Below, in pieces: positions 2 through 13,796 of a stretch of 17,498 bases of DNA. How positions within the stretch are numbered: the stretch's first letter is position 1; each line of letters starts with the position of its first letter. Position numbers and translations under genes: made by a program. The notes under the pieces were generated by a model that did no database searches, was not told where the DNA came from, and worked only from the letters and a program-made list of their open reading frames with translations. This DNA comes from Nanobdellota archaeon (lineage in GTDB: Archaea > Nanobdellota > Nanobdellia > Pacearchaeales > GW2011-AR1): the NCBI GenBank assembly GCA_030640565.1, contig DAOWJD010000014.1:1-17498 (forward strand), given 5' to 3'.

Positions 2-571
2 ATTGGGGATGGTCATCTTAAAAAAAGCAAGTATCAAATCAACTTAGAATTATCTAATAAAAATTTAATTAAAAGTATAAAAAAAATGTGCTTATATCTG
101 TTTAATAGATCATTTAATATTTGTAAAGTAAAAGAAAGGGTAAATAGAAAACAATCATATTCTATGTGTATTGATAGTAAAGCTATTCATCAATTACTAA
201 ACCAAGTACATGAAATTCCTATTGGTAAAAAAAGTCATATTGTAAAAGTTCCAAAATATATTTTTATTTCAAACAAATCAATTAAAGCTGCTTTTCTAAT
301 TGGAATAATGGTTACAGAAGGTGGAAAAAGAAGAAGGGGTTTTGGATTATCAACAGCCAGCGAACAATTATGGAAAGATTTAGTAATACTTTTTAATGAA
401 GTCGGAATTAAGGTAAAAACAGATAAGTGGACACACAAAAAGTATAAAAAGGATTATTATGGTTTATCTTTTAAGAAAGAATGTCTTTCTATTTTGACGC
501 GGGAGTGCCGGAGTGGTCAAACGGGCCAGATTCTTTTTAGGTGTAATAACCTAAGAGAAGGCTATGCTTAG
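2..571 (+). CDS. LAGLIDADG-family homing endonuclease, two-motif type, 5' end cut by window edge
   Basis: The frame of the tracked ORF 86..571 is open from base 2 and translates as IGDGHLKKSKYQINLELSNKNLIKSIKK..., the tail of a first LAGLIDADG motif. A second motif-like helix, KAAFLIGIMVTEGG, lies about 100 aa downstream, as expected for a monomeric double-domain enzyme. The first in-frame stop is TAG at 569-571, so the last ~24 codons are tRNA DNA. Confidence 0.7.
   Translation: MGDGHLKKSKYQINLELSNKNLIKSIKKMCLYLFNRSFNICKVKERVNRKQSYSMCIDSKAIHQLLNQVHEIPIGKKSHIVKVPKYIFISNKSIKAAFLIGIMVTEGGKRRRGFGLSTASEQLWKDLVILFNEVGIKVKTDKWTHKKYKKDYYGLSFKKECLSILTRECRSGQTGQILFRCNNLREGYA
469..478 (+). promoter_or_regulatory. 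TATA-like box for tRNA-Leu
   Basis: TTTTAAGAAA is centred about 26 nt upstream of the tRNA 5' end at 499. The L44e and tRNA-Thr boxes in this window have the same spacing. It lies inside the 3' end of the LAGLIDADG ORF. Confidence 0.4.
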
Positions 572-618
572 GACCTGGTAGCTTAGTGCTTGCAGGGGTT
601 CGAATCCTCTCTCCCGCA
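499..618 (+). tRNA. tRNA-Leu (anticodon UAG), class II with long variable arm, contains an intron of about 36 nt; no encoded CCA
   Basis: Hand fold: acceptor GCGGGAG (499-505) pairs with CTCCCGC (611-617), discriminator A618. D arm is CCG/CGG with an A14 and GG-containing loop. T arm is AGGGG-TTCGAAT-CCTCT. Variable arm is AGC-TTAGT-GCT. Anticodon loop is CTTAGGA (567-573) followed by CCTGG. The 120 nt length needs about 36 nt removed to give an 84-nt class II tRNA. A73 plus the long variable arm fits Leu rather than Ser. Confidence 0.8.
530..565 (+). other. putative tRNA-Leu intron, boundaries tentative (+/-1 nt), apparently at non-canonical position 30/31
   Basis: Removing 530-565 joins CCAG to G and gives a perfect 5-bp anticodon stem CCAGG/CCTGG around loop CTTAGGA. 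Removing 531-566 instead leaves an A31-C39 mismatch. The intron has an internal hairpin TTAGG-TGTAATAA-CCTAA (537-554) whose CCTAA could alternatively pair with the anticodon-loop TTAGG (568-572). I could not draw a clean bulge-helix-bulge by hand. Confidence 0.4.
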
Positions 619-635
619 TAATTATTTCTAAATCT

Positions 636-3600
636 TTATCCAAAACATCCAAGTAATTGACAATATGCCATATATCTTGCATAAGTCCCTCTAACATATC
701 CTTCAGAAGTAATTTCAGTGCCATACTTAGCAACATCTATAACATTTTCTGGAATAATTGCATATTCTGGAGAATTTCCTGTTCTTTTCTCATATTCGAT
801 TTTTATAGTGTGATAAATAATTGTATCTTCTAAATCATCTTCCTTCTCACTAGCTTGGAAAGTTTTTAGATTATCACGAGTCAATAAATCCTCTCTTCCT
901 ACTCTTATTAAAAATTCTTCAACAACTTCCATTGTTTTATCACCAATATCTCCATCAAGAGCAAGATTACTTCTTAGTAAGACGTTTAATTGATTCTGTA
1001 AGGCAGCGTTTCTAGAAGAATATAATCCTGACTGATAATCTGCAGCAATGAGTTTAATCCTATCTTCGTCTAAAGGTTTTGTATTATAATCAGTGTAAAC
1101 ATTTATTATTTCATTTAAATATAATACTCCATAATAAACTCCTCCTTTCTGTGTATACAATATAGATCTCATCTCTTTATCAGAGTAATCTTCGTGGCTA
1201 TATTTCTGAGCCAATACCCTCGCCTTTTCTACATTTAATTGCATTGAACCAACTGTCTCTGGTCTGAATCCTTTAACAAATAGTTTTTCCACGAATCCAA
1301 CAGAATCTAAGAATTGCTCTAACTGCTTTTCTGTTTTAATTTCTCTTATTTGATCTTTATATTTTTCATAAAAACGATTAGCTCCACGATATTTTAATCC
1401 AAGCCACTCTCCTCCTTCTTTAATCTCTTGTAATTTCCTTTGAATTATGTTTTCTATATTTGGTGTAAGAGGATCTGCTCTAAAATCAGATTCTCTCTCT
1501 ATCGTACTAACTATCAAAGATACATGTTCAAACTCTAAAGGAATATTCCAATCAATCATTACTCTTAAAATAGCATTTGCCCATTCTTCTCCTTGCTCTT
1601 GATTAATATGACCTCTTCTATAACTTATAGCCTGAGAAATAGGTCCTCTTAATAATTCAGCTTCAGGAGGGAAAAAAACTCTTTCTAATGGGGACTCTGT
1701 TTCTATAGCACATTCTGGAAACATCTCCATAACAGCGTTTCTGTTTGTCTCATCTAATACATCTTCTACATACCTAGGATTTCCTACAGATTTTTTATCT
1801 CCTTCTTCATCTACATCTGTACATCGGGTATTCCATCCATTATAACTTCTCAAAGCACGTTTCCATCCAGAATAAGCTTTATTAACAAAATCACTTTCTC
1901 TAACAACACCCCATTTTATCTGCCTATAACAACTATAAACTCTTTCTGAAGAATCATAATTATCTATTAATAAATTAATTCCATATTTCACATTTTCTTC
2001 AAAAAGTACTTTTTCTCCATGCACATCTTTATTAATTTGCATAATACCCAGACTCTTATCCTCATCTCCTGAAATAACTTCTTTAATATCTTCCTCACAA
2101 TATAATGGATCCTGTTCTAGATTATCAGAAGATCTTTTACAATGTCTAATATTGCTTTCAACTCTTGCAACCATTAAAGCTAAACATTCAAAAGATTCTG
2201 CTCTTGTGCCTTCTTTAACCTTATTAAAATCGATTTCCGGGTGCTCTAACTTTTTCTCTCTTGCCATCTCTATTATTTTTCCACCTAAAAGTTTTTGGCA
2301 TTCTTCTAATGTAAAGCAGGTTTCTGCTCCTGGCTTAATTTCTAATCCAATTCCTGGTTCAGTTCCTAATTGAGAACCCTCTTGAAAGGCTAAGGCATCA
2401 ATACTAAAAATAGTCTCTGCGCCATTATAATAATCCGGCTCTTCTTCGTCTAAGCTTTCTATTAAATCTTCATTTTGTAGCCATGTTTCTTCATCCCATA
2501 TCTTCATTTTTCCAATAAAAACTTTTGCGGGAACATGTGCCCAATTTTTCTTATCTGGAGACCATCTCCATTTTTTTTGAGAAGAGTCAAATTCAAAATA
2601 AACATCTGTTGCTTCCTGCTGTTTCACTGTAAATCTTTCTTTATGAGATAATTCAACACTTTTTGTAGATAATATTACATTAGACAAAAGGCCTTTACCT
2701 TTATTTTGTGTTGTTCTGTCAATTAATAATTTTAATCCCTCTGAATAAGATTCACCAACGAATTTACTTGTAAACTTTTGCATTTCTTCAGATAATCCAT
2801 CAAAGGGATGTCTTAATCTTCCATGTGGGTCAATAGCCCATATGTCAGAGACACCTTTATCTGTAGTGTGCCAAGCACTTTTAGTTAATTTTCTATCCAA
2901 AGCCCAATACCAATTATTCCCAGAATATGAATAATAAATGCTAGTTTTTTCTTTAAATAAAACAACTCCTCCATATTTAAATTCAAAAATAGGATATGCT
3001 CCTCTTCCTGTACCAATTCTTTTCGTTTCTTCATCAATCTCTGCTAATTTTCTCGCAGCCTCTTCAGTTGTAGGTGCACCCTTATCACTAGTTGGCGGAG
3101 GAGTAGGTTTTTTCTGTATGGATTTAATATATTTATCATATATATCTGAAACAATTAACCTATAGAGGTTTGCTCTTAAAAGAATTAAAGAAGCTTTTTT
3201 AGTTGGATGGTAAACCTTATCAATATCTGCATTAATTATGTTTATTTTTCTAAAATTGTTATCTTCTTCTTCTACATCCTTAAGAAGTTCCTTAAATTCA
3301 TTATCACTCAAAAAATTACTTCCTTCTAAAGTTTCTATGTAACCAGGTGTTACTTCTTCTAAAATTTTATCCTCAATATTTGTATTTTTTATAGTGGTTT
3401 TTACACTGTTTGTATCAAGCCAGCACTGCATCTTTGTATCTCCACAATATCCAACAGGTTGCCATCTTGATTTGTTTGTTCTAATAAAAGCATCTGTGGC
3501 TTTTCCAGGATTATCTGTTGCACATATTCTTGTAATTCCACGATTGTATAAGGCAGGGTTTGTTATTTCTGTTGCTCCTGCCTGGATATTAGGACTTAAT

Positions 3601-6600: not shown

Positions 6601-8378
6601 TTTTCAGAACTGGAAAATGCATAAATACTTTTACATACTTGTTCTTCTTCTAAATTAGGGTATGTTGCTTTAAATTCATTACAAAGTTCTAGGGCTGTTC
6701 TTTTCTGGTCAGCAGAAAATGCAAGATTTATTTTTCCAGATAAAGCTTCAGGACCTAAAGTTTTACCAGATTCCGAAGATTTTTCCTGAGAGAAATCTTC
6801 AAGTACATAATCATAATCTTCATTTCCACTAGAATAATAATTCTGGAAATTTGAGTCTTCTTTAGATGCAAGAGACAGTTCAGAATTAGTAGCATCTGCA
6901 AATCCTAAAATAGTTATACTTTTTCCAAAGGCATTTTCGGGTTTTCCAAAAGAAATAGTGTCAAATGATTGACCTGCAAGTCTTCTTATACCTTTTTCAA
7001 CAACGCCTACTCCAGCTTTTCCTGCTTTAATAGTGGCATCGACAAGATTTTTTGGGGTTTCAGAAGGTTGAAGATTTTTCATAAGTCTCCCAATAGACAT
7101 TATCCGATCTTCTTCAATACAATCTTCATCGCCAGGAGCAGACATAATAACAATAAATAAATCTCCTTCAGATACAATATTACTTTTTGTACCAGCATAT
7201 GCAAGATAAGCAGATTTATCGTTATTTATTTTATAAAGTTTTTGTCCAACCTTTACTGTTTTTTCTTCTCCTCCAACATCAATTTTTAATTTAGGCTTAT
7301 ACCCTATTTGGAAAGAGCTCCTCCTAGTATCTCCCTGACAACTAATAGTAACTTTCTCATTAATTCCGTGATTTTCTATATATTTTATTGTGCATTTATT
7401 ATCTATGAATTTTTCCCCTTCTTTTAATTCAAGAACATTACCATTTACTTTTAAATTAACCCTTGTACCAGGATTTTCTAGGTCTTTCAGTTGTACTTGC
7501 ATGGTTCCAAAACAATAATCAAAACCAGGTAGAGGGGTGTTTCTTGAAGATTCACCAACATTAAGATTAAGTGTAACAAGTTTTCTTTTTACATCTGACT
7601 TTCCAGAACCATAAGTTTCTCTATCAGAATAAACAGAGATAGTTGCTCCATTGTTATCAATCCCTTCTGCTCTCAGATAACCTCTTCCATCCCAAAAACC
7701 ATATCTTAAATAATTCTCTTCCCATTCATCTTCATTCATTTGAGGAAGATAAAAAACAGATCTTCCGACGCCAAAAGCATTTTTTATATCATATCTTATC
7801 TTAGCTGTTAAATTTCCTAAAATAAATTCAGGCATGATTGATTCATTTATTTGCTTTCTCAAAACTATGACAGCATATCCTATTTTATTTAAAACAGGCT
7901 GATTAAACTGGGTCCTGAATCTTCCCAAGGCAGCTCTTGCAGGCACATACGTCACTCCTACAACTTCTTTTGGTTTTGGTCCTGCAAAAGAGAAAGTAAT
8001 GGTACTGATTGTTTCAATTTCTATCATAGGATTAAGTTGTGTCGCAACTATAGGACAAAAAACAGGAACATTTTGATCCTCAAGGATGTCGCTTCTTACA
8101 ACAGACGGTTCACAACCTAAAGGATCAATTTGAAGAATAAAATCCTGTCCTGCTTCACACTTGTTTCTATCAAACAAAGGAAATCCAGGGTCTCCTGAAT
8201 AAGGAACATAAGTTGGAGAATAAGAAGTAAATGATCTTGAATAAGAATTAGAAGCACTGAAAATTTGCGCTGAAATAAATGAAATTAATAAAACTGTTAA
8301 AATCAAGGCACTAAAAACTAAGATAAATCTTTTCATATTCATACGCGTCATTATTTTATTTTTTGCTTTCATCTTCAC
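636..8378 (-). CDS. giant (about 2580 aa) secreted multidomain protein with two C-terminal lytic-transglycosylase-like domains
   Basis: Uninterrupted 7.7-kb ORF. The N-terminus MKRFILVFSALILTVLLISFISAQIFSAS has a Sec-type n-h-c pattern. A Pro/Thr linker KKPTPPPTSDKGAPTT (about nt 3069-3113) separates the large unrecognisable body from a C-terminal module carrying SLT-like motifs. The start is uncertain: GTG 8378 overlaps the upstream TGA stop (GTGA), ATG 8372 follows AGGTGA, and further in-frame ATGs occur at codons 10, 13 and 15. Confidence 0.9.
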   Translation of the reverse strand: MKMKAKNKIMTRMNMKRFILVFSALILTVLLISFISAQIFSASNSYSRSFTSYSPTYVPYSGDPGFPLFDRNKCEAGQDFILQIDPLGCEPSVVRSDILEDQNVPVFCPIVATQLNPMIEIETISTITFSFAGPKPKEVVGVTYVPARAALGRFRTQFNQPVLNKIGYAVIVLRKQINESIMPEFILGNLTAKIRYDIKNAFGVGRSVFYLPQMNEDEWEENYLRYGFWDGRGYLRAEGIDNNGATISVYSDRETYGSGKSDVKRKLVTLNLNVGESSRNTPLPGFDYCFGTMQVQLKDLENPGTRVNLKVNGNVLELKEGEKFIDNKCTIKYIENHGINEKVTISCQGDTRRSSFQIGYKPKLKIDVGGEEKTVKVGQKLYKINNDKSAYLAYAGTKSNIVSEGDLFIVIMSAPGDEDCIEEDRIMSIGRLMKNLQPSETPKNLVDATIKAGKAGVGVVEKGIRRLAGQSFDTISFGKPENAFGKSITILGFADATNSELSLASKEDSNFQNYYSSGNEDYDYVLEDFSQEKSSESGKTLGPEALSGKINLAFSADQKRTALELCNEFKATYPNLEEEQVCKSIYAFSSSEKTFENVVINGRIYNINFGSVREPSLDEFSATINIRYPNGERESVKLRQNTLVYLGETTDDTGDTDEYIQLLDLQKGELDRGATARIRVNLKKSRTVEEVIAFFIEPSTETLSHGVTETFRSKYQFTLEEVNLKKVAKVSINPKINYARTNATFGFKIGIEKRLFQLSPEKTRERIEFLNKTLEKWQNINKKIGTVVSGFKAACLGIGTGLTVKNFFSNLGGRGLARQEVMRGDGGWFDFCEKKKKLGDYRNVDACLLNNSDKINRDVNIVSEIIENQEAITSENAAERLIRIRESLDGSITNPNKAGEKIEISKTSNVGSAFSEEGFSEGKITPSQARDLDRLQKVLSTPNIGEELKELSEKKRYDILADIKANTEYFSERINLVNKYGVAPSQIEFFQEGERVKAMDYSGLTYKNIQGKTSLEGINNIIDDDGKPLIKENTPIVLLPSNTGKTYIVVLDDTGGIDKFPVARDQEDQPLIYNQKDGSLVSSPSDDLKNAFFKRVDRTTYENAFENAEVRYYESGAYAGFPAIVPFDLQNGWYAYIKPTMPIGGAIRAYDASGVVRSFYICNVGGNNKAEFNSGIGDDSCEGFTWGGQPPDFSGLDKGELRTLKNTAEKAILAAQRQHRSGVSHVSIISPRGASQRIKVGNPETGRPDIQCQDFMSPSDCNLMFNVCDPVACPSSRCDLGGAYPVKDVVQTGIAGSIFLCLPNFPEVKVPVCLSGIHAGIESLLTVFDSYQQCLQTSLDTGQTVGVCDEINSVYLCDLIWRQGIPLAKIIVTEGLGTVLGQKARGGGEYLGVKDAWQRSSDSIDFFTQQYAASSFKSFKGRSVEDVGTSVCKNFISFVGPSGFDTFITPDSPVQFYGRFDEIPFTTATNPPVSQYKVFYHVYAGKDFPAYYQVYLRGTGGSFYQDASLKRIVAQGFIKAGDYFTETRDLTAPSGYHQMCIIVNGQEECGFKQVTTSFGVNYVAEKYVESQASQTDITTEAACRSGTPNVLSLLSPNIQAGATEITNPALYNRGITRICATDNPGKATDAFIRTNKSRWQPVGYCGDTKMQCWLDTNSVKTTIKNTNIEDKILEEVTPGYIETLEGSNFLSDNEFKELLKDVEEEDNNFRKINIINADIDKVYHPTKKASLILLRANLYRLIVSDIYDKYIKSIQKKPTPPPTSDKGAPTTEEAARKLAEIDEETKRIGTGRGAYPIFEFKYGGVVLFKEKTSIYYSYSGNNWYWALDRKLTKSAWHTTDKGVSDIWAIDPHGRLRHPFDGLSEEMQKFTSKFVGESYSEGLKLLIDRTTQNKGKGLLSNVILSTKSVELSHKERFTVKQQEATDVYFEFDSSQKKWRWSPDKKNWAHVPAKVFIGKMKIWDEETWLQNEDLIESLDEEEPDYYNGAETIFSIDALAFQEGSQLGTEPGIGLEIKPGAETCFTLEECQKLLGGKIIEMAREKKLEHPEIDFNKVKEGTRAESFECLALMVARVESNIRHCKRSSDNLEQDPLYCEEDIKEVISGDEDKSLGIMQINKDVHGEKVLFEENVKYGINLLIDNYDSSERVYSCYRQIKWGVVRESDFVNKAYSGWKRALRSYNGWNTRCTDVDEEGDKKSVGNPRYVEDVLDETNRNAVMEMFPECAIETESPLERVFFPPEAELLRGPISQAISYRRGHINQEQGEEWANAILRVMIDWNIPLEFEHVSLIVSTIERESDFRADPLTPNIENIIQRKLQEIKEGGEWLGLKYRGANRFYEKYKDQIREIKTEKQLEQFLDSVGFVEKLFVKGFRPETVGSMQLNVEKARVLAQKYSHEDYSDKEMRSILYTQKGGVYYGVLYLNEIINVYTDYNTKPLDEDRIKLIAADYQSGLYSSRNAALQNQLNVLLRSNLALDGDIGDKTMEVVEEFLIRVGREDLLTRDNLKTFQASEKEDDLEDTIIYHTIKIEYEKRTGNSPEYAIIPENVIDVAKYGTEITSEGYVRGTYARYMAYCQLLGCFG
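1000..1595 (-). other. second, more divergent lytic-transglycosylase-like domain (domain of the giant protein)
   Basis: VSLIVSTIERESDFRADP (Glu-Ser at 1488-1493), then about 80 aa later ETVGSMQLNVEKA (G codon at 1248-1250), then GGVYYGVLYLNEII. The order of signature elements matches the first domain but the E-to-GxMQ spacer is longer. The call rests on motifs only. Confidence 0.4.
1824..2216 (-). other. SLT / GH23-like lytic transglycosylase domain (domain of the giant protein)
   Basis: ECLALMVARVESNIRHC (candidate catalytic Glu codon at 2157-2159, followed by Ser), then SLGIMQINKDVHG (GIMQ at 2037-2048), then YGINLL and AYSGWKRALRSYNGW. This is the E-S ... G-[LI]-M-Q-[IV] ... Y pattern of family 1 soluble lytic transglycosylases and goose-type lysozyme-fold proteins. 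Confidence 0.65.
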
Positions 8379-10204
8379 CTAAATCCTATTTCAAGCCCCT
8401 TTGTTTCAAATAATAAATGATTGATTTGTAATTGCTCAATTGTTTCAGGCACTGAAAAGCTTTTTGTATCTATCTCAATAGTACTAAAACCGATTAATTC
8501 AGATTCTAAAATATAATATTTTTGTTTTCCTCCTCCTACAAGAGCTTGAGATATTATCTGTTCAGGAACCTCAATTTCAAAACATTTTTCTTCCTTTAAT
8601 CCAAAAGCTCCAAGAACTCCTGATTTTGGAATTTCCATACACTGCTCTGTTGTTGTTTCTCCAATACTAATAGAAGAATCCCTATAAATATAAACATGTA
8701 CTTCATATTGTCCTTCTGCTAACTCTACAATTCTCTGCTCAGGATAAAGAACAGTTTTAGTAAAATCATCTGAAACAAAATAAATTATTGCATTTTCATT
8801 ATAGTTTACTCCGTCGATTTTTAGCTGAATATTTTTATTGTAAAGTTGGTCCATAATAACTGTCAGACTTCCTGGAGAAACTGTTGAAAGTAAATATTTA
8901 GAATCCTTGAAACCTTCTGCTTTAGCTATAACATATCCATTAACACACTGTGGGAAGTTCTCTGAGAGTCTTCCTGCTTCAGTTTCTCCTATATTACATT
9001 TATTTCCAAAACATTCATAAGAAATCTGTGCTTCTCTTACAGGATTTCCTTGCTTGCTCACCACATTAATTTCAATTTCAGAATTTTTATACTGGCAAAG
9101 CTCTGGAACAACACTTTCAATTGCAGTTACATTCAAGGATTGTCTTGGATTATTATTTTGAATAACAACTGCCATAGGAAACTGAAAAATTTCATCTCCA
9201 GAATAAACCTGTACAAGAACAGGATATTTCATACTATAAACAAAATGATAAGGAACATAACAAAATCCCATAATTCCTAAACCAGGTTGGTTTCCTACAG
9301 GATTTGCTATTAAAAGATTTTCTTCAGAAGGCATAACTTCAAAACTATGTGGCCAGTTTCTTGAATTCAAAAATCTAACCTCTTCTTTTACAGAAACATC
9401 AAGAATAAAATAACCATCAGCATCTACTTTTGTATTAAGTGCTAAAGTATTTACTTCAATAGCCTCCTGCAATTCATCAAAAATCTCGTCTGCATTCTTG
9501 ATGAAAGGGGAACACGTAATCTCAACTCCATCAACAGGAGCATAAAGTCTTAATATATCAATTGCATATTCTTCTAAAAATAAATTCTCTTGCTCTTCTT
9601 CATATATCTTTTTCGCAGAATCATAAAGATCTCCTAGTTCTGATTTTACAGTAATCTTATGGTCTTTTATTAAAATACCTTCATTTCCTATAGATATATT
9701 TAGGTTTGCATTGAGTTTAACTCTGACTTCATTATCTTTAATTGTTGCTTTTGCTTCTGATTCTAACAGTGAAATTTCAAACCCTTGGTCATAATAAGAA
9801 TTAAAATTACAGTTATTTATTCTGCCTTCAATAAAGGATTCAAGCTGTTGCTCCATTTCTGTTTCTGTCGGAATCTGTTCTTTTTGAATATTATTTCCAG
9901 AAACATAATACCAATAAGGGATAGGGTTTCCAAGAAAATTCAATTGGGAAGAGAAAGGCATGTATTCAGAACCTGGCTCAAATTCTGGTAAAGAAATATA
10001 TCCTCCTTGACTTTGTAAAACATTTATACCTGTTAAAGTATCTTCCTCTAAACAAGTTAAGAAAGTTGTGTAAATTGGTTCAATATTCTCAGGAATATCT
10101 GTCTTAGTCAAAGTAGTTCTCAGAATAAAATAAGCACCAATTCCTGCAATAATAAGTATTGCAATTATAATGAAAATTGTTACCTGTCCACTCTTATTTT
10201 TCAT
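8375..10204 (-). CDS. 609-aa secreted or membrane-anchored protein with pilin-like (class III-like) N-terminus and a beta-sandwich-like domain; function unknown
   Basis: N-terminus MKNKSG-QVTIFIIIAILIIAGIGAYFIL is a short basic segment, then Gly, then Gln+1 and a hydrophobic helix. This is a near match to the archaeal prepilin-peptidase pattern, except that position -2 is Ser. The segment IEINVVSKQGNPVREAQISYE...GYVIAKAEGFKDSKYLL resembles CarboxypepD_reg/PEGA-like beta-sandwiches. Its stop overlaps the giant gene start and its start overlaps the 45-aa ORF. Confidence 0.85.
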   Translation of the reverse strand: MKNKSGQVTIFIIIAILIIAGIGAYFILRTTLTKTDIPENIEPIYTTFLTCLEEDTLTGINVLQSQGGYISLPEFEPGSEYMPFSSQLNFLGNPIPYWYYVSGNNIQKEQIPTETEMEQQLESFIEGRINNCNFNSYYDQGFEISLLESEAKATIKDNEVRVKLNANLNISIGNEGILIKDHKITVKSELGDLYDSAKKIYEEEQENLFLEEYAIDILRLYAPVDGVEITCSPFIKNADEIFDELQEAIEVNTLALNTKVDADGYFILDVSVKEEVRFLNSRNWPHSFEVMPSEENLLIANPVGNQPGLGIMGFCYVPYHFVYSMKYPVLVQVYSGDEIFQFPMAVVIQNNNPRQSLNVTAIESVVPELCQYKNSEIEINVVSKQGNPVREAQISYECFGNKCNIGETEAGRLSENFPQCVNGYVIAKAEGFKDSKYLLSTVSPGSLTVIMDQLYNKNIQLKIDGVNYNENAIIYFVSDDFTKTVLYPEQRIVELAEGQYEVHVYIYRDSSISIGETTTEQCMEIPKSGVLGAFGLKEEKCFEIEVPEQIISQALVGGGKQKYYILESELIGFSTIEIDTKSFSVPETIEQLQINHLLFETKGLEIGFR

Positions 10205-10712: not shown

Positions 10713-11285
10713 TTATTTTTTACTTCCAATTGGAAAACGATAACCACATGTTAAAGCAATCATACCTTTTACATTTTCACTTCCTGGCCACACTATATAA
10801 CTGATTCCTCCATGAAGTTTATTAATTTTTACACCAGCACCAAACTTTAATCCAAGTGTTGTATTTGATACCTTCTCACGAATGCCAAATTGGGGAAGAT
10901 TTATTTCTGAATTTTCGATTAATACATTTGCACCAGCCATCAAATAAGGTTTTACTTTTGCTGTTTGTTTTGATAAATCAAACCTTACCTTAGCACTTAA
11001 CAAAGTACTCCTTGTTTTTATGCCTTTTTCTTTTGCTGATGACTTAAAAAAATCTAAACCAACTCCACCCCCAATTACTTTTCCACTAAGACTATAATCT
11101 ACACCAACCATGGTAGAAGGTTTATAAGCTTGTTTTTTTGCAGATATAGGGACTATTGTTCCGACCCTTAGTCCAATATAGTGCTCTAAAGATTGGGCAT
11201 TAAGTTCCAAAGGTATAAACAACATTAGACTCATTAAAGCTGTCCTCTTCGCTTTCCTTACTATTAATTCTAATCTTTGTTTCAT
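10713..11285 (-). CDS. 190-aa secreted protein with the pattern of an 8-stranded outer-membrane beta-barrel (OmpX/OmpW/OMP_b-brl-like)
   Basis: Signal-peptide-like N-terminus RKAKRTALMSLMLFIPLELNA-QS (AxA-type site). It is followed by eight amphipathic alternating segments: YIGLRVGTIV, TMVGVDYSLS, VIGGGVGLDFF, LLSAKVRFDL, KPYLMAGANVLI, TLGLKFGAGVKI, HGGISYIVW, MIALTCGYRF. Polar loops separate them. The last strand ends in an aromatic Phe near the C-terminus, followed by PIGSKK. Confidence 0.6.
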   Translation of the reverse strand: MKQRLELIVRKAKRTALMSLMLFIPLELNAQSLEHYIGLRVGTIVPISAKKQAYKPSTMVGVDYSLSGKVIGGGVGLDFFKSSAKEKGIKTRSTLLSAKVRFDLSKQTAKVKPYLMAGANVLIENSEINLPQFGIREKVSNTTLGLKFGAGVKINKLHGGISYIVWPGSENVKGMIALTCGYRFPIGSKK

Positions 11286-11324: not shown

Positions 11325-13796
11325 CTAAACATAATAACATGCTCCATAATTACATATTTCTATCTTACATCTTCCTGAGATGCATCCATGTTCACAATCT
11401 TCTATTTTCTTTTTTGAAGTAGATGATATACAATCTGAATCAGAACAATCTCTTGTTATATAGTCTCTATAAACATTATCATTATGACAGTAATTATCTC
11501 CAGTATATCCACTTACTCCACATTCTTGAACTTTTTCCTCTTCTATATATTCATTATCAAAACAAACCCCTATAGAACACCCTTTATTATGACAGATTTT
11601 ATCATGATAAACATCTCCATCTTCACAATAATCATCTTGCCAATCCTCACAATAATCAGAACCACAATCTTCTTTTAATTCAAGAGCAGTTGAATTTGAG
11701 CAATATGAATCACCTGTTCCAGCATTATTGCATGTATAAGTTATATAATTTTGCCAGACATTATCTTCCTGACATGATGAATCTCCCACATAATCATTAA
11801 CACCACATTCAGAATCATTATAACATTCTACATATACACACTCCCCGTCTAAACAGCCTTCAGCTCCGCATTCTTGAACTTTTTGCGTTGTTGTATTTTC
11901 AAAACAAGCTCCATCTGAACAACCCCTATCTGTAAAATTCTGATAAACATCATTATCATAACAATAATTATCACTATGGGAATCTTCTCTGCAATCCTCT
12001 TTCATAATTATATTGCTTTCATCGCTACAAAAAGATTGTTCTGTTCCAGGATTATTACAAGTATATTCTCTATACCACTGGTAAACATCATTATTAGAAC
12101 ACCAAGGACTCCCACTGAGATCATTTACTCCACAATCTATATTAGAAGAACAAATTATATTTGGATTTGATTTACAATTCCCATTTATGCATCCATACTG
12201 GCATGTTTCAACAAATCTTTCATTTTCATATGAATTTGAATAACAATGAACACCAAATGACGTTGTGGTTGTGCATCCTTTGTTATAACAAAGTTGGGTT
12301 TCATATGCGTCGTCCCCGTGGCAAGTATCTCTATACCAATCAGAACAACCATCATTTCCACACTCCTGTTTTTTTTCTTCTCTATTATCACATGCATCAT
12401 ACCAATAAATATCATTATAAGCACACTTTGTATATGAATGACTTGTACAAGTTATACAGGTTCCAGAACCATCACATTCATTATTTGTTCCGCAAGAAGT
12501 GTGTTTAGGTTTATTTGTATAATCAATACAAGCCATAGCAAAACTACAACTACCTGCTCCATTACAATATTTACCTACATCATGATAATTCCTACAAGTT
12601 GTATCTAAATAATCACAGTCTTTAGTTCCACAAACTGTTGAAGTTCCATAATAATTACAAGTGGAATCTCCTGCAGTACAATATTCACAAATTCCACAAG
12701 TATCATAATTAAAAGTACCCCAAGTATAACTAGCACTTAAACCAGTGCAATAATAATCTCTCTTAATAACAGAACTTGTTCCTGTTGGAGAATTTATTCC
12801 AGAGCAATAATAAGAATCAATATAACCTGTTGGTTGACTTAGATAAGGTTTAAATTCATATGGCCTGCTCGACAAATCACAACAAACTCCTGAAAGACAA
12901 TCGCACTCTCCATTTACATAACCATAAACACTATAACTAGAAGTAGACATCTCCCCAACTTTATTGCCAAAATCATAAATTTTAACATAAAATTCTCCAC
13001 TTGCTCCAGGGTCAGGAATAATCGCATCACTTAAATCAACACTCAAGAAATCTCCTTCAAAATAAAAAGATTCGCAATCATAGCTTTTACTTGAACCACA
13101 ATCCCAATCCACAAGATCATCAGGAAAAATCCCGTCATATTCCATCAAATCTATACACCAGGTAACATAAGCATAGCCATTCCTTGCACAATCATATAAA
13201 TCTCCATAATCTGGATAAAATCTTGCTCTTCCTTTAACAATAATATCTATTTCCTCATTCTCACAAACATTTGAAGGCAAAGAAGGGTCAAATTTAATAT
13301 AGTACGTAGATGAACTTGTAGATAAAACATATTCTTTTCCATCCCTCATAATATAACTTGTACCATTTCTATTAAGAATTTCACTAGATAAATTCATAAA
13401 ATCATCTATTTCAGTCTCATTAACCCCTTCTGTATAATTAGTTTCATTTTGATTGTCCACAATTTCATTTAAGACAGGAACATCAACAACATTTCCAGTT
13501 ATTACAGGAGCAGAAGAAGCACTGCCTCCACTTCCTCCTCCAGAAGATTTCTTAGAAGAGGATTTTTTATCAATCTCATCAAAAGTAAACTTAATTTCAT
13601 TACCTAAAGAATTTACATCTTGAGAAGTATCTTGTTCAGTATCAAGTAAAATAAGTTCTGTCCCTATATTGTTTTCATTATCTGATTTCCTAATTTCATT
13701 TGTAATTATAACTCCTGAAGAAACCACTAAGACCGAGATTACTAAAAAGATTAATGTAACACTTGCTTTTTTAGAAGTTAAAAAAAAACTTCCCAT
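11325..13796 (-). CDS. 823-aa secreted or anchored, extremely cysteine-rich repeat protein (adhesin-like); function unknown
   Basis: N-terminal anchor or signal SKKASVTLIFLVISVLVVSSGVII, then a Ser/Gly linker KKSSSKKSSGGGSGGSASSAP, a Cys-poor domain of about 200 aa, then aa 298-823 with 63 Cys by my hand count (about 12 percent). Confidence 0.85.
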   Translation of the reverse strand: MGSFFLTSKKASVTLIFLVISVLVVSSGVIITNEIRKSDNENNIGTELILLDTEQDTSQDVNSLGNEIKFTFDEIDKKSSSKKSSGGGSGGSASSAPVITGNVVDVPVLNEIVDNQNETNYTEGVNETEIDDFMNLSSEILNRNGTSYIMRDGKEYVLSTSSSTYYIKFDPSLPSNVCENEEIDIIVKGRARFYPDYGDLYDCARNGYAYVTWCIDLMEYDGIFPDDLVDWDCGSSKSYDCESFYFEGDFLSVDLSDAIIPDPGASGEFYVKIYDFGNKVGEMSTSSYSVYGYVNGECDCLSGVCCDLSSRPYEFKPYLSQPTGYIDSYYCSGINSPTGTSSVIKRDYYCTGLSASYTWGTFNYDTCGICEYCTAGDSTCNYYGTSTVCGTKDCDYLDTTCRNYHDVGKYCNGAGSCSFAMACIDYTNKPKHTSCGTNNECDGSGTCITCTSHSYTKCAYNDIYWYDACDNREEKKQECGNDGCSDWYRDTCHGDDAYETQLCYNKGCTTTTSFGVHCYSNSYENERFVETCQYGCINGNCKSNPNIICSSNIDCGVNDLSGSPWCSNNDVYQWYREYTCNNPGTEQSFCSDESNIIMKEDCREDSHSDNYCYDNDVYQNFTDRGCSDGACFENTTTQKVQECGAEGCLDGECVYVECYNDSECGVNDYVGDSSCQEDNVWQNYITYTCNNAGTGDSYCSNSTALELKEDCGSDYCEDWQDDYCEDGDVYHDKICHNKGCSIGVCFDNEYIEEEKVQECGVSGYTGDNYCHNDNVYRDYITRDCSDSDCISSTSKKKIEDCEHGCISGRCKIEICNYGACYYV
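11367..12425 (-). repeat. divergent tandem Cys-rich modules within the 823-aa protein (protein-level repeats)
   Basis: Recurrent unit C-x2-[ND]-[DN]-[VI]-[YW] ... C ... [KQ]-[EV]-[EQ]-[ED]-C-G ... G-C-x-[DNS]-G-x-C. Examples are CGVNDLSGSPWCSNNDVYQWYREYTCNNPGTEQSFCSDESNIIMKEDC and CGVNDYVGDSSCQEDNVWQNYITYTCNNAGTGDSYCSNSTALELKEDC, plus repeated KVQECG..GC..G.C closures. DNA identity between units is low, for example atcattaacaccacattc versus atcatttactccacaatc. Confidence 0.7.

Follow-up and report, generated by a model that had tools for sequence, protein, structure and literature searches.

Why would an archaeon that has no murein of its own encode modules resembling murein-cutting enzymes, and what would such modules act on? 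The question is raised by a stretch of 17,498 nucleotides (contig DAOWJD010000014.1 of assembly GCA_030640565.1, referred to here as a whole as the window) from a Nanobdellota archaeon of the Pacearchaeales. On its minus strand lies an open reading frame (ORF) for a giant protein of 2,580 residues. The original prediction, made from the sequence itself, was that two modules at the C-terminus of this protein resemble the lytic transglycosylases (LTs) of the SLT/GH23 group, and that their target is a bacterial wall unless the fold has been repurposed.

The most likely answer is that the two modules cut bacterial cell walls, and the giant ORF probably belongs to the murein-like LT family of giant extracellular proteins found in Woese- and Pacearchaeota-type DPANN archaea. 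After export, the protein would probably stay attached through its single hydrophobic segment near the N-terminus, with a body of around 2,000 residues that projects from the small archaeal cell and ends, at the distal C-terminus, in a muralytic cassette. Domain 1 is predicted to cleave the bond between N-acetylmuramic acid (MurNAc) and N-acetylglucosamine (GlcNAc) in bacterial peptidoglycan, MurNAc-beta-1,4-GlcNAc, the general acid being Glu2074. This organism has gained a second module, DUF1615, which is predicted to be lysozyme/SLT-like and would use Glu2296. Acting together, the modules may breach or hold on to the wall of a bacterium, be it host, prey or neighbour, so that the archaeon can attach, reach the cytoplasm or scavenge wall material. 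The export topology, the catalytic activity, its product (1,6-anhydro-MurNAc as opposed to that of hydrolysis) and the biological role are those that we infer for the protein.

A divergent SLT-like domain

Domain 1 contains the signature of family-1 LTs (E-S; G-L/I-M-Q; A-Y-N-x-G; a downstream Y) complete and in order, as E2074-S2075, G2111-I-M-Q, S-Y2179-N-G-W and Y2203-V. Across 94 aligned domain 1 sequences, E2074, G2111, Y2179 and N2180 are present without exception (94/94), while M2113, G2181 and Y2203 are each kept in 92 sequences, Q2114 in 91 and S2075 in 89. Seven cysteines are also conserved in this alignment, which would fit an extracellular, disulfide-bonded domain.

The motifs quoted in the original prediction are all present, in one minus-strand frame and within the single ORF, and the codon that it gave for the glutamate of RVES is exact. 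Its other positions need adjustment. GIMQIN had been placed at 2037-2048, which covers GIMQ only, and ERESDF of the second module at 1488-1493, which are the codons of the E-S pair; the span of 1000-2216 clips both domains (the full extents are given in Table 1). Three motifs had been overlooked, SYNGW and NPRYV in domain 1 and ADYQSG in domain 2.

A word-indexed search with domain 1 yielded only four close relatives. A profile built from these was scored against 1.84 billion cluster representatives (50% identity) and matched 227 of them at E<=1e-3, of which 68 reach E<=1e-30; most of the matches listed are C-terminal, or nearly so, in proteins of about 2,000-2,400 residues. The weaker matches (E 4e-11 to 2e-6) connect the family to established enzymes. 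Twenty-two of 26 are independently positive for Pfam SLT (best 3.6e-14), and hhalign joins the domain 1 profile to these distant matches with a probability of 99.9% and E=1e-32. A profile of the distant SLT-positive matches in turn reaches solved structures of MltC (3e-13), Slt70 (1.7e-10), MltE and goose lysozymes, as well as the phage tape measure LT 9b45 (1.1e-7) and EtgA. Thus, domain 1 is homologous to bona fide SLT/GH23 domains by transitive profile homology through intermediate sequences. The 227 representatives, the conservation across 94 relatives and the DUF1615 match described below place the motifs beyond chance.

Several results weigh against this assignment. The Pfam SLT model, which had been put forward as the check for both modules, remains below threshold on domain 1 (14.0 bits, E=0.038; cut-off 21.3), and among 29 close relatives it reaches E<=0.1 in only six. 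The likely reason is an insertion between E-S and G-x-M-Q of around 25 extra residues, which include cysteines. An AlphaFold2 model made from a five-sequence alignment is poor, with a predicted local distance difference test (pLDDT) score of 69.9 that drops below 50 in the motif region, and Foldseek found no fold match with this poor model. Direct searches of PDB sequences with domain 1 and with its small profile gave nothing meaningful. We infer the fold of the domain from its homology instead, and on this basis its identification as a putative GH23-type muramidase is well supported, with hydrolase and lytic transglycosylase chemistry both possible.

A DUF1615 module behind it

The second module is a full-length DUF1615 domain (PF07759), which matches the Pfam profile at 141.3 bits against a threshold of 25 (E=5e-41) over profile positions 6-314 of 319. 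The original reading of both modules as lysozyme- or LT-like is supported. The assignment to SLT/GH23 itself holds for domain 1, through profile homology, and not for domain 2, the resemblance of which to LTs is seen in weak structural matches, in its motifs and in its context. The relatives of domain 2 are bacterial lipoproteins of around 380 residues, mostly from Myxococcota, at 24-33% identity. No characterisation of DUF1615 function was found in the searchable literature.

The proposed link to LTs is drawn from the structural neighbours of the domain model, from the invariant and collinear E-S and G-x-M-Q motifs, and from domain context. The motifs are E2296-S2297, G2377-S-M-Q and A-D-Y2448-Q-S-G, and in 84 DUF1615 sequences the domain positions E36, S37, G117, M119, Q120, A186 and D187, along with several others, are invariant. 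If an insertion of around 75 residues between E-S and G-x-M-Q is allowed for, the DUF1615 motifs E-S, G-x-M-Q and (A)-Y-N-x-G are collinear with those of SLT, the Asn being replaced by Gln in the window copy.

A confident AlphaFold2 model from the DUF1615 alignment (pLDDT 91.5; predicted template modelling score, pTM, 0.88) predicts an all-alpha lysozyme-like fold, in which E-S closes a helix at its C-terminal end and a short beta element holds G-S-M-Q. In SLT domains, too, E-S is found at a helix end and G-x-M-Q in a short beta element. When this model was compared with the PDB using Foldseek, almost all of the top 30 or so neighbours were family-1 LTs (MltC, MltF, MltE, Slt and Cj0843), the best being MltC (E=0.08, probability 0.99). 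Among viral models (BFVD) the top matches were SLT-domain, LT_GEWL, GH19 and lysozyme proteins.

Here also there is evidence on the other side. Every Foldseek E-value for domain 2 exceeds 0.01, with template modelling (TM) scores of about 0.3, although such weak scores would fit a conserved core interrupted by large insertions, including that of around 75 residues. Pfam gives no SLT match for domain 2, and neither the domain nor its small profile matches a PDB sequence. hhalign compared DUF1615 with SLT-positive segments at a probability of 7.7%; after excision of the insertion this increased to only 42%, with E-S and G-x-M-Q then aligned. In addition, the near-invariant Asn of DUF1615 (N189, in A-D-Y-N-A-G) is a Gln in the window copy (ADYQSG). 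The filing of domain 2 as an SLT domain was dropped, as hhalign remained weak even with the insertion excised. It is instead predicted to be a lysozyme/SLT-like DUF1615 domain outside the SLT family.

It is possible to go further and suppose that only domain 1 is muralytic, DUF1615 serving in peptidoglycan or lipid binding, in regulation or in immunity, with a remote LT ancestry and without the chemistry. We think this rather unlikely, while noting that it would account for the lack of a significant sequence or profile link to SLT, for Foldseek E-values of at least 0.08 at TM scores near 0.3, for the replacement of Asn by Gln in DYNAG and for a family that is uncharacterised in the searchable literature. 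It is harder to square with the invariance of E-S and G-x-M-Q with an SLT-like spacing if the insertion is discounted, with the results from two independent libraries, where nearly all top structural neighbours are LTs or members of the lysozyme clan, and with the place of DUF1615 in relatives, where it sits in the slot of Amidase_3 and VanY.

Relatives, neighbourhood and the likely target

In 60 of the 94 domain 1 sequences the protein ends no more than 20 residues after domain 1, and DUF1615 is therefore an add-on. Only four other proteins examined with the DUF1615 profile (P0159, P0171, P0183 and P0263) have the domain after domain 1. In P0171 (3,779 residues), domain 1 is followed by Amidase_3, an N-acetylmuramoyl-L-alanine amidase (E=5e-32), and by DUF1615, while in P0183 DUF1615 and ankyrin repeats lie behind the SLT-like domain. 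In P0132, domain 1 is followed by VanY, a D-Ala-D-Ala carboxypeptidase of the M15 peptidases (E=3e-31). Several other relatives have extensions of 150-570 residues behind the SLT-like domain that match nothing in Pfam. With DUF1615, Amidase_3 and VanY sharing one C-terminal position among relatives, this end of the giant protein appears to be a modular slot for wall enzymes. The archaeal DUF1615 copies have indels in common, and the window copy is up to 38% identical to them, against 25-32% to bacterial ones, which suggests that archaeal DUF1615 stems from one acquisition. A scan of GTDB with exact peptides of the C-terminal 560 residues found no relative; an alignment-based scan did find relatives.

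The amidase and carboxypeptidase partners act on parts of murein that are absent from pseudomurein and chitin. These fusions are the strongest argument in this analysis that the family would target bacterial peptidoglycan, with murein as the substrate, and, located right behind domain 1, they strengthen the earlier proposal of a bacterial wall as the target.

GH23 also includes chitinases and goose-type lysozymes, and the modules might represent a repurposed GH23 fold that acts on a non-murein glycan such as chitin, the envelope glycans of an archaeal host or pseudomurein. In line with this, the PDB sequences that a profile of the domain 1 family reaches are all goose-type lysozymes, at a borderline E=0.055, although the goose-lysozyme-like Asp of 'GD' is kept in only 46 of the 94 sequences. 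Such a substrate nevertheless seems improbable, as the fusion partners are specific to murein peptide stems and the chemistry of pseudomurein is unsuited: its bonds are beta-1,3, and a 1,6-anhydro product requires a C6-OH, which its N-acetyltalosaminuronic acid does not have. A further point in favour of an archaeal target is that the cultured DPANN described in PMC8204110 have archaeal hosts.

The N-terminal body, of around 2,000 residues, has no match in Pfam, NCBIfam or PDB sequences, and is presumed to be a stalk or adhesin part of the protein. The only hydrophobic segment, at residues 18-36, is predicted to be a signal or anchor, with the remainder extracellular. By tblastn, residues ~2-2224 are collinear with giant ORFs at 35-52% identity in eight loci (L002, L004, L006, L008, L009, L011, L012 and L014), and the single-cell genome SCGC AAA011-D5 is among the DPANN genomes with a collinear giant ORF. 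The adhesin-like appearance of this large body, free of enzyme domains, allows a reading in which the C-terminal modules, too, are carbohydrate-binding adhesins and not enzymes, so that the giant protein merely tethers the archaeon to the wall of its partner; attachment is among the published speculations (PMC8204110). This is unlikely in our view, since the Glu-Ser and G-x-M-Q motifs are near-invariant or invariant in 94 domain 1 and 84 DUF1615 sequences, as is typical of active enzymes, and since relatives carry additional catalytic wall hydrolase modules.

That the genome is archaeal, as had been claimed, is borne out by the neighbourhood. The window encodes the ribosomal proteins S3Ae (E=7e-15) and L44e and has a uniformly low GC content (0.28-0.38). 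The giant gene, a gene for a 609-residue protein immediately upstream, L44e and S3Ae recur together in metagenome-assembled genomes (MAGs) and single-amplified genomes (SAGs) of Woesearchaeota, Pacearchaeota and Nanoarchaeota; they are neighbours in the window as well as in six independent loci. Fourteen of the 15 GTDB loci with relatives are in DPANN MAGs or SAGs. The fifteenth, L004 (DATKUW010000047.1), one of those six, is labelled Bacillota, yet its giant gene, 609-residue partner, L44e, S3Ae and YbjQ are arranged as in the window; its archaeal ribosomal genes and this arrangement identify it as a DPANN contig that was wrongly binned with a bacterial MAG. Contamination from a bacterium or virus, or a chimeric assembly, would agree with the label of L004, with that of the fragment P0132 (Patescibacteria) and with an ORF nearby that resembles an outer membrane beta-barrel. 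Given the conserved synteny with archaeal ribosomal genes, the even base composition and the DPANN origin of nearly all loci, such an origin of the gene is extremely improbable and was rejected.

Table 1. Features of the window, with nucleotide positions on the forward strand and residue numbers of the giant protein.
Feature	Nucleotides	Residues	Strand	Basis or remark
Giant ORF, 2,580 residues	636..8378		minus	ORF call; N-terminal hydrophobic segment and C-terminal modules
N-terminal body, ~2,000 residues	2319..8324		minus	no recognisable domain; length and sequence conserved across DPANN family
Domain 1, putative divergent Cys-rich SLT/GH23-like muramidase domain	1707..2318	~2021-2224	minus	profile homology and motifs
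RVES, domain 1		2072-2075	minus	motif
Glu2074 codon, predicted catalytic acid of domain 1	2157..2159	2074	minus	invariant in 94/94 relatives
GIMQIN, domain 1	2031-2048	2111-2116	minus	motif
SYNGW, domain 1		2178-2182	minus	family-1 motif
NPRYV, domain 1		2200-2204	minus	family-1 motif
Linker between domains 1 and 2	1602..1706	2225-2259	minus	sequence position
Domain 2, full-length DUF1615 (PF07759)	666..1601	2260-2571	minus	Pfam match
ERESDF, domain 2	1482-1499	2294-2299	minus	motif
E-S pair of domain 2, Glu2296 codon	1491-1493	2296	minus	C-terminal end of predicted domain helix 23-37
E-S pair of domain 2, Ser2297 codon	1488..1490	2297	minus	C-terminal end of predicted domain helix 23-37
GSMQLN, domain 2	1233-1250	2377-2382	minus	motif
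GGVYYGVLYL, domain 2	1116-1145	2412-2421	minus	motif
ADYQSG, domain 2		2446-2451	minus	motif
609-residue partner gene	8375..10204		minus	immediately upstream of giant gene
190-residue ORF	10713-11285		minus	signal-like N-terminus; Pfam OMP_b-brl
823-residue ORF	11325-13796		minus	N-terminal transmembrane segment; long Cys-rich repeats
Nucleoside diphosphate kinase ORF, 211 residues	15802-16437		plus	Pfam NDK match in two stretches
Intron-containing tRNA gene, class-II-like	499-618		plus	acceptor GCGGGAG/CTCCCGC; long variable arm
LAGLIDADG homing-endonuclease-like ORF	2-571		plus	Pfam LAGLIDADG_3 and Hom_end

The 609-residue protein is probably a functional partner of the giant protein. Its gene lies directly upstream in all seven complete DPANN loci (7/7), at 52-71% identity, and is better conserved than the giant protein itself. 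The two genes are probably co-translated: the GTG start of the giant gene overlaps the TGA stop of the partner gene, with an alternative ATG six nucleotides downstream. The N-terminus of the partner, K-S-G-Q-VTIFIIIA in the window, is conserved across loci as [KR]-x-G-Q-VTIFIIIA and resembles an archaeal class III (pilin-like) signal. The protein matches nothing in Pfam, NCBIfam or PDB sequences.

Between the partner gene and L44e, the 823- and 190-residue ORFs look like an insertion. The larger has no match in NCBIfam, Pfam or PDB sequences and was not found in related loci. The smaller, also absent from homologous loci, is above the Pfam OMP_b-brl threshold (31.4 against 28.7 bits), an odd match for an archaeon without an outer membrane. 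With its listed GTG start, the nucleoside diphosphate kinase ORF begins around 50 nucleotides inside the end of the S3Ae gene; the true start probably lies later, or else the domain contains an insertion. At the other end of the window there is a homing-endonuclease-like ORF of the LAGLIDADG type (Hom_end, E=6e-5; LAGLIDADG_3, E=1e-6), whose frame stays open as far as the left edge and carries IGDGHL at bases 2-19; its 3' end runs into a tRNA gene with the T-arm AGGGGTTCGAATCCTCT. This tRNA was missed by default ARAGORN and by Rfam. With introns allowed, ARAGORN finds it with a 38-nucleotide intron, its anticodon call of Pro-agg being doubtful.

Comparison with known systems

In Woesearchaeota and Pacearchaeota, giant extracellular proteins of the murein-like lytic transglycosylase type were described by Castelle 2021 as fam00969, with the proposal that they bind and degrade bacterial walls (PMC8204110); that paper credits Rinke 2013 and Castelle 2015 with having noticed them before. 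Genes for a 'large lytic murein transglycosylase' (GH23) in Woesearchaeota were reported by Vigneron 2022 and given a predatory interpretation (PMC9723730), and later papers repeat the idea of giant LTs with a bacterial target (PMC10936187, PMC11537232 and PMC12352652). Both the giant LT proteins and the inference of a bacterial host or prey are thus already published, and the novelty attached to the locus in the original prediction was overestimated (PMC8204110, PMC9723730 and PMC10936187). Within this family the DUF1615 add-on is a minor, rare variant feature. Full-text literature searches found no mention of the DUF1615 module, of its LT-like predicted fold, of the Amidase_3 and VanY variants or of the partner gene; at least one archaeal fragment has already been auto-annotated at NCBI as 'DUF1615 family protein [archaeon]'.

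A conserved giant surface protein, encoded in the chromosomal core and with a putative murein-specific tip, is among the few genomic clues to bacterial rather than archaeal partners of some DPANN, and is of value because the hosts of Woese- and Pacearchaeota-type DPANN are largely unknown. To an idea already in the literature the window adds a clear-cut case that includes a second module of uncharacterised function, evidence for a C-terminal slot that takes varied peptidoglycan enzymes, and a conserved partner gene with a pilin-signal-like N-terminus. It also supplies a functional hypothesis for the bacterial DUF1615 family. Tentatively, and with slightly less than even odds, it may be suggested that DUF1615 is an unrecognised lysozyme/LT-like family of wall enzymes, free-standing lipoproteins in bacteria, acquired once by DPANN into a swappable C-terminal 'muralytic cassette' that pairs SLT with DUF1615, Amidase_3 or VanY and makes the giant protein a modular anti-bacterial weapon or docking device. 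If the cassette and the role of DUF1615 as a wall enzyme were as suggested, they would constitute direct genomic evidence of these archaea living on bacteria.

Compared with the family-1 LTs Slt70, MltC and MltE (PF01464, GH23), the modules have E-S, G-[LI]-M-Q, A/S-Y-N-x-G and Y in like order. Domain 1 differs in its insertion, its seven conserved cysteines and its sub-threshold Pfam score; domain 2 differs in a larger insertion and in having no significant sequence match to these enzymes, which are nonetheless the nearest structural neighbours of its model. Unlike the bacteria from which such LTs are known, the organism of the window has no murein. With goose-type lysozymes, which are GH23 hydrolases, domain 1 has a 'GD..x.G-x-MQ..H' segment in common, but this match falls short of significance, and only about half of the sequences keep the Asp of 'GD', the second acidic residue.

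Domain 2 can be aligned over its whole length with the DUF1615 lipoproteins of Myxococcota and Proteobacteria and retains all of their invariant residues except for the Asn of DYNAG. The bacterial proteins, however, stand alone, while the window copy is fused to a giant archaeal protein. Phage tape-measure and tail lysins and EtgA of the type III secretion system offer an analogy, as there too an LT domain ends a very long structural protein, but the N-terminal body is not homologous to theirs and the giant gene is chromosomal, beside ribosomal protein genes.

The closest resemblance is to the giants of the fam00969 type. The protein of the window has their size class, at 2,580 residues, one N-terminal transmembrane segment, adjacent archaeal ribosomal genes and collinear homologues, and it has in common with them its lineage, the combination of an N-terminal anchor with a C-terminal SLT-like domain, and the upstream partner gene. 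Presumably it belongs to the fam00969 cluster itself, to which it adds a DUF1615 domain of around 320 residues past the usual C-terminus.

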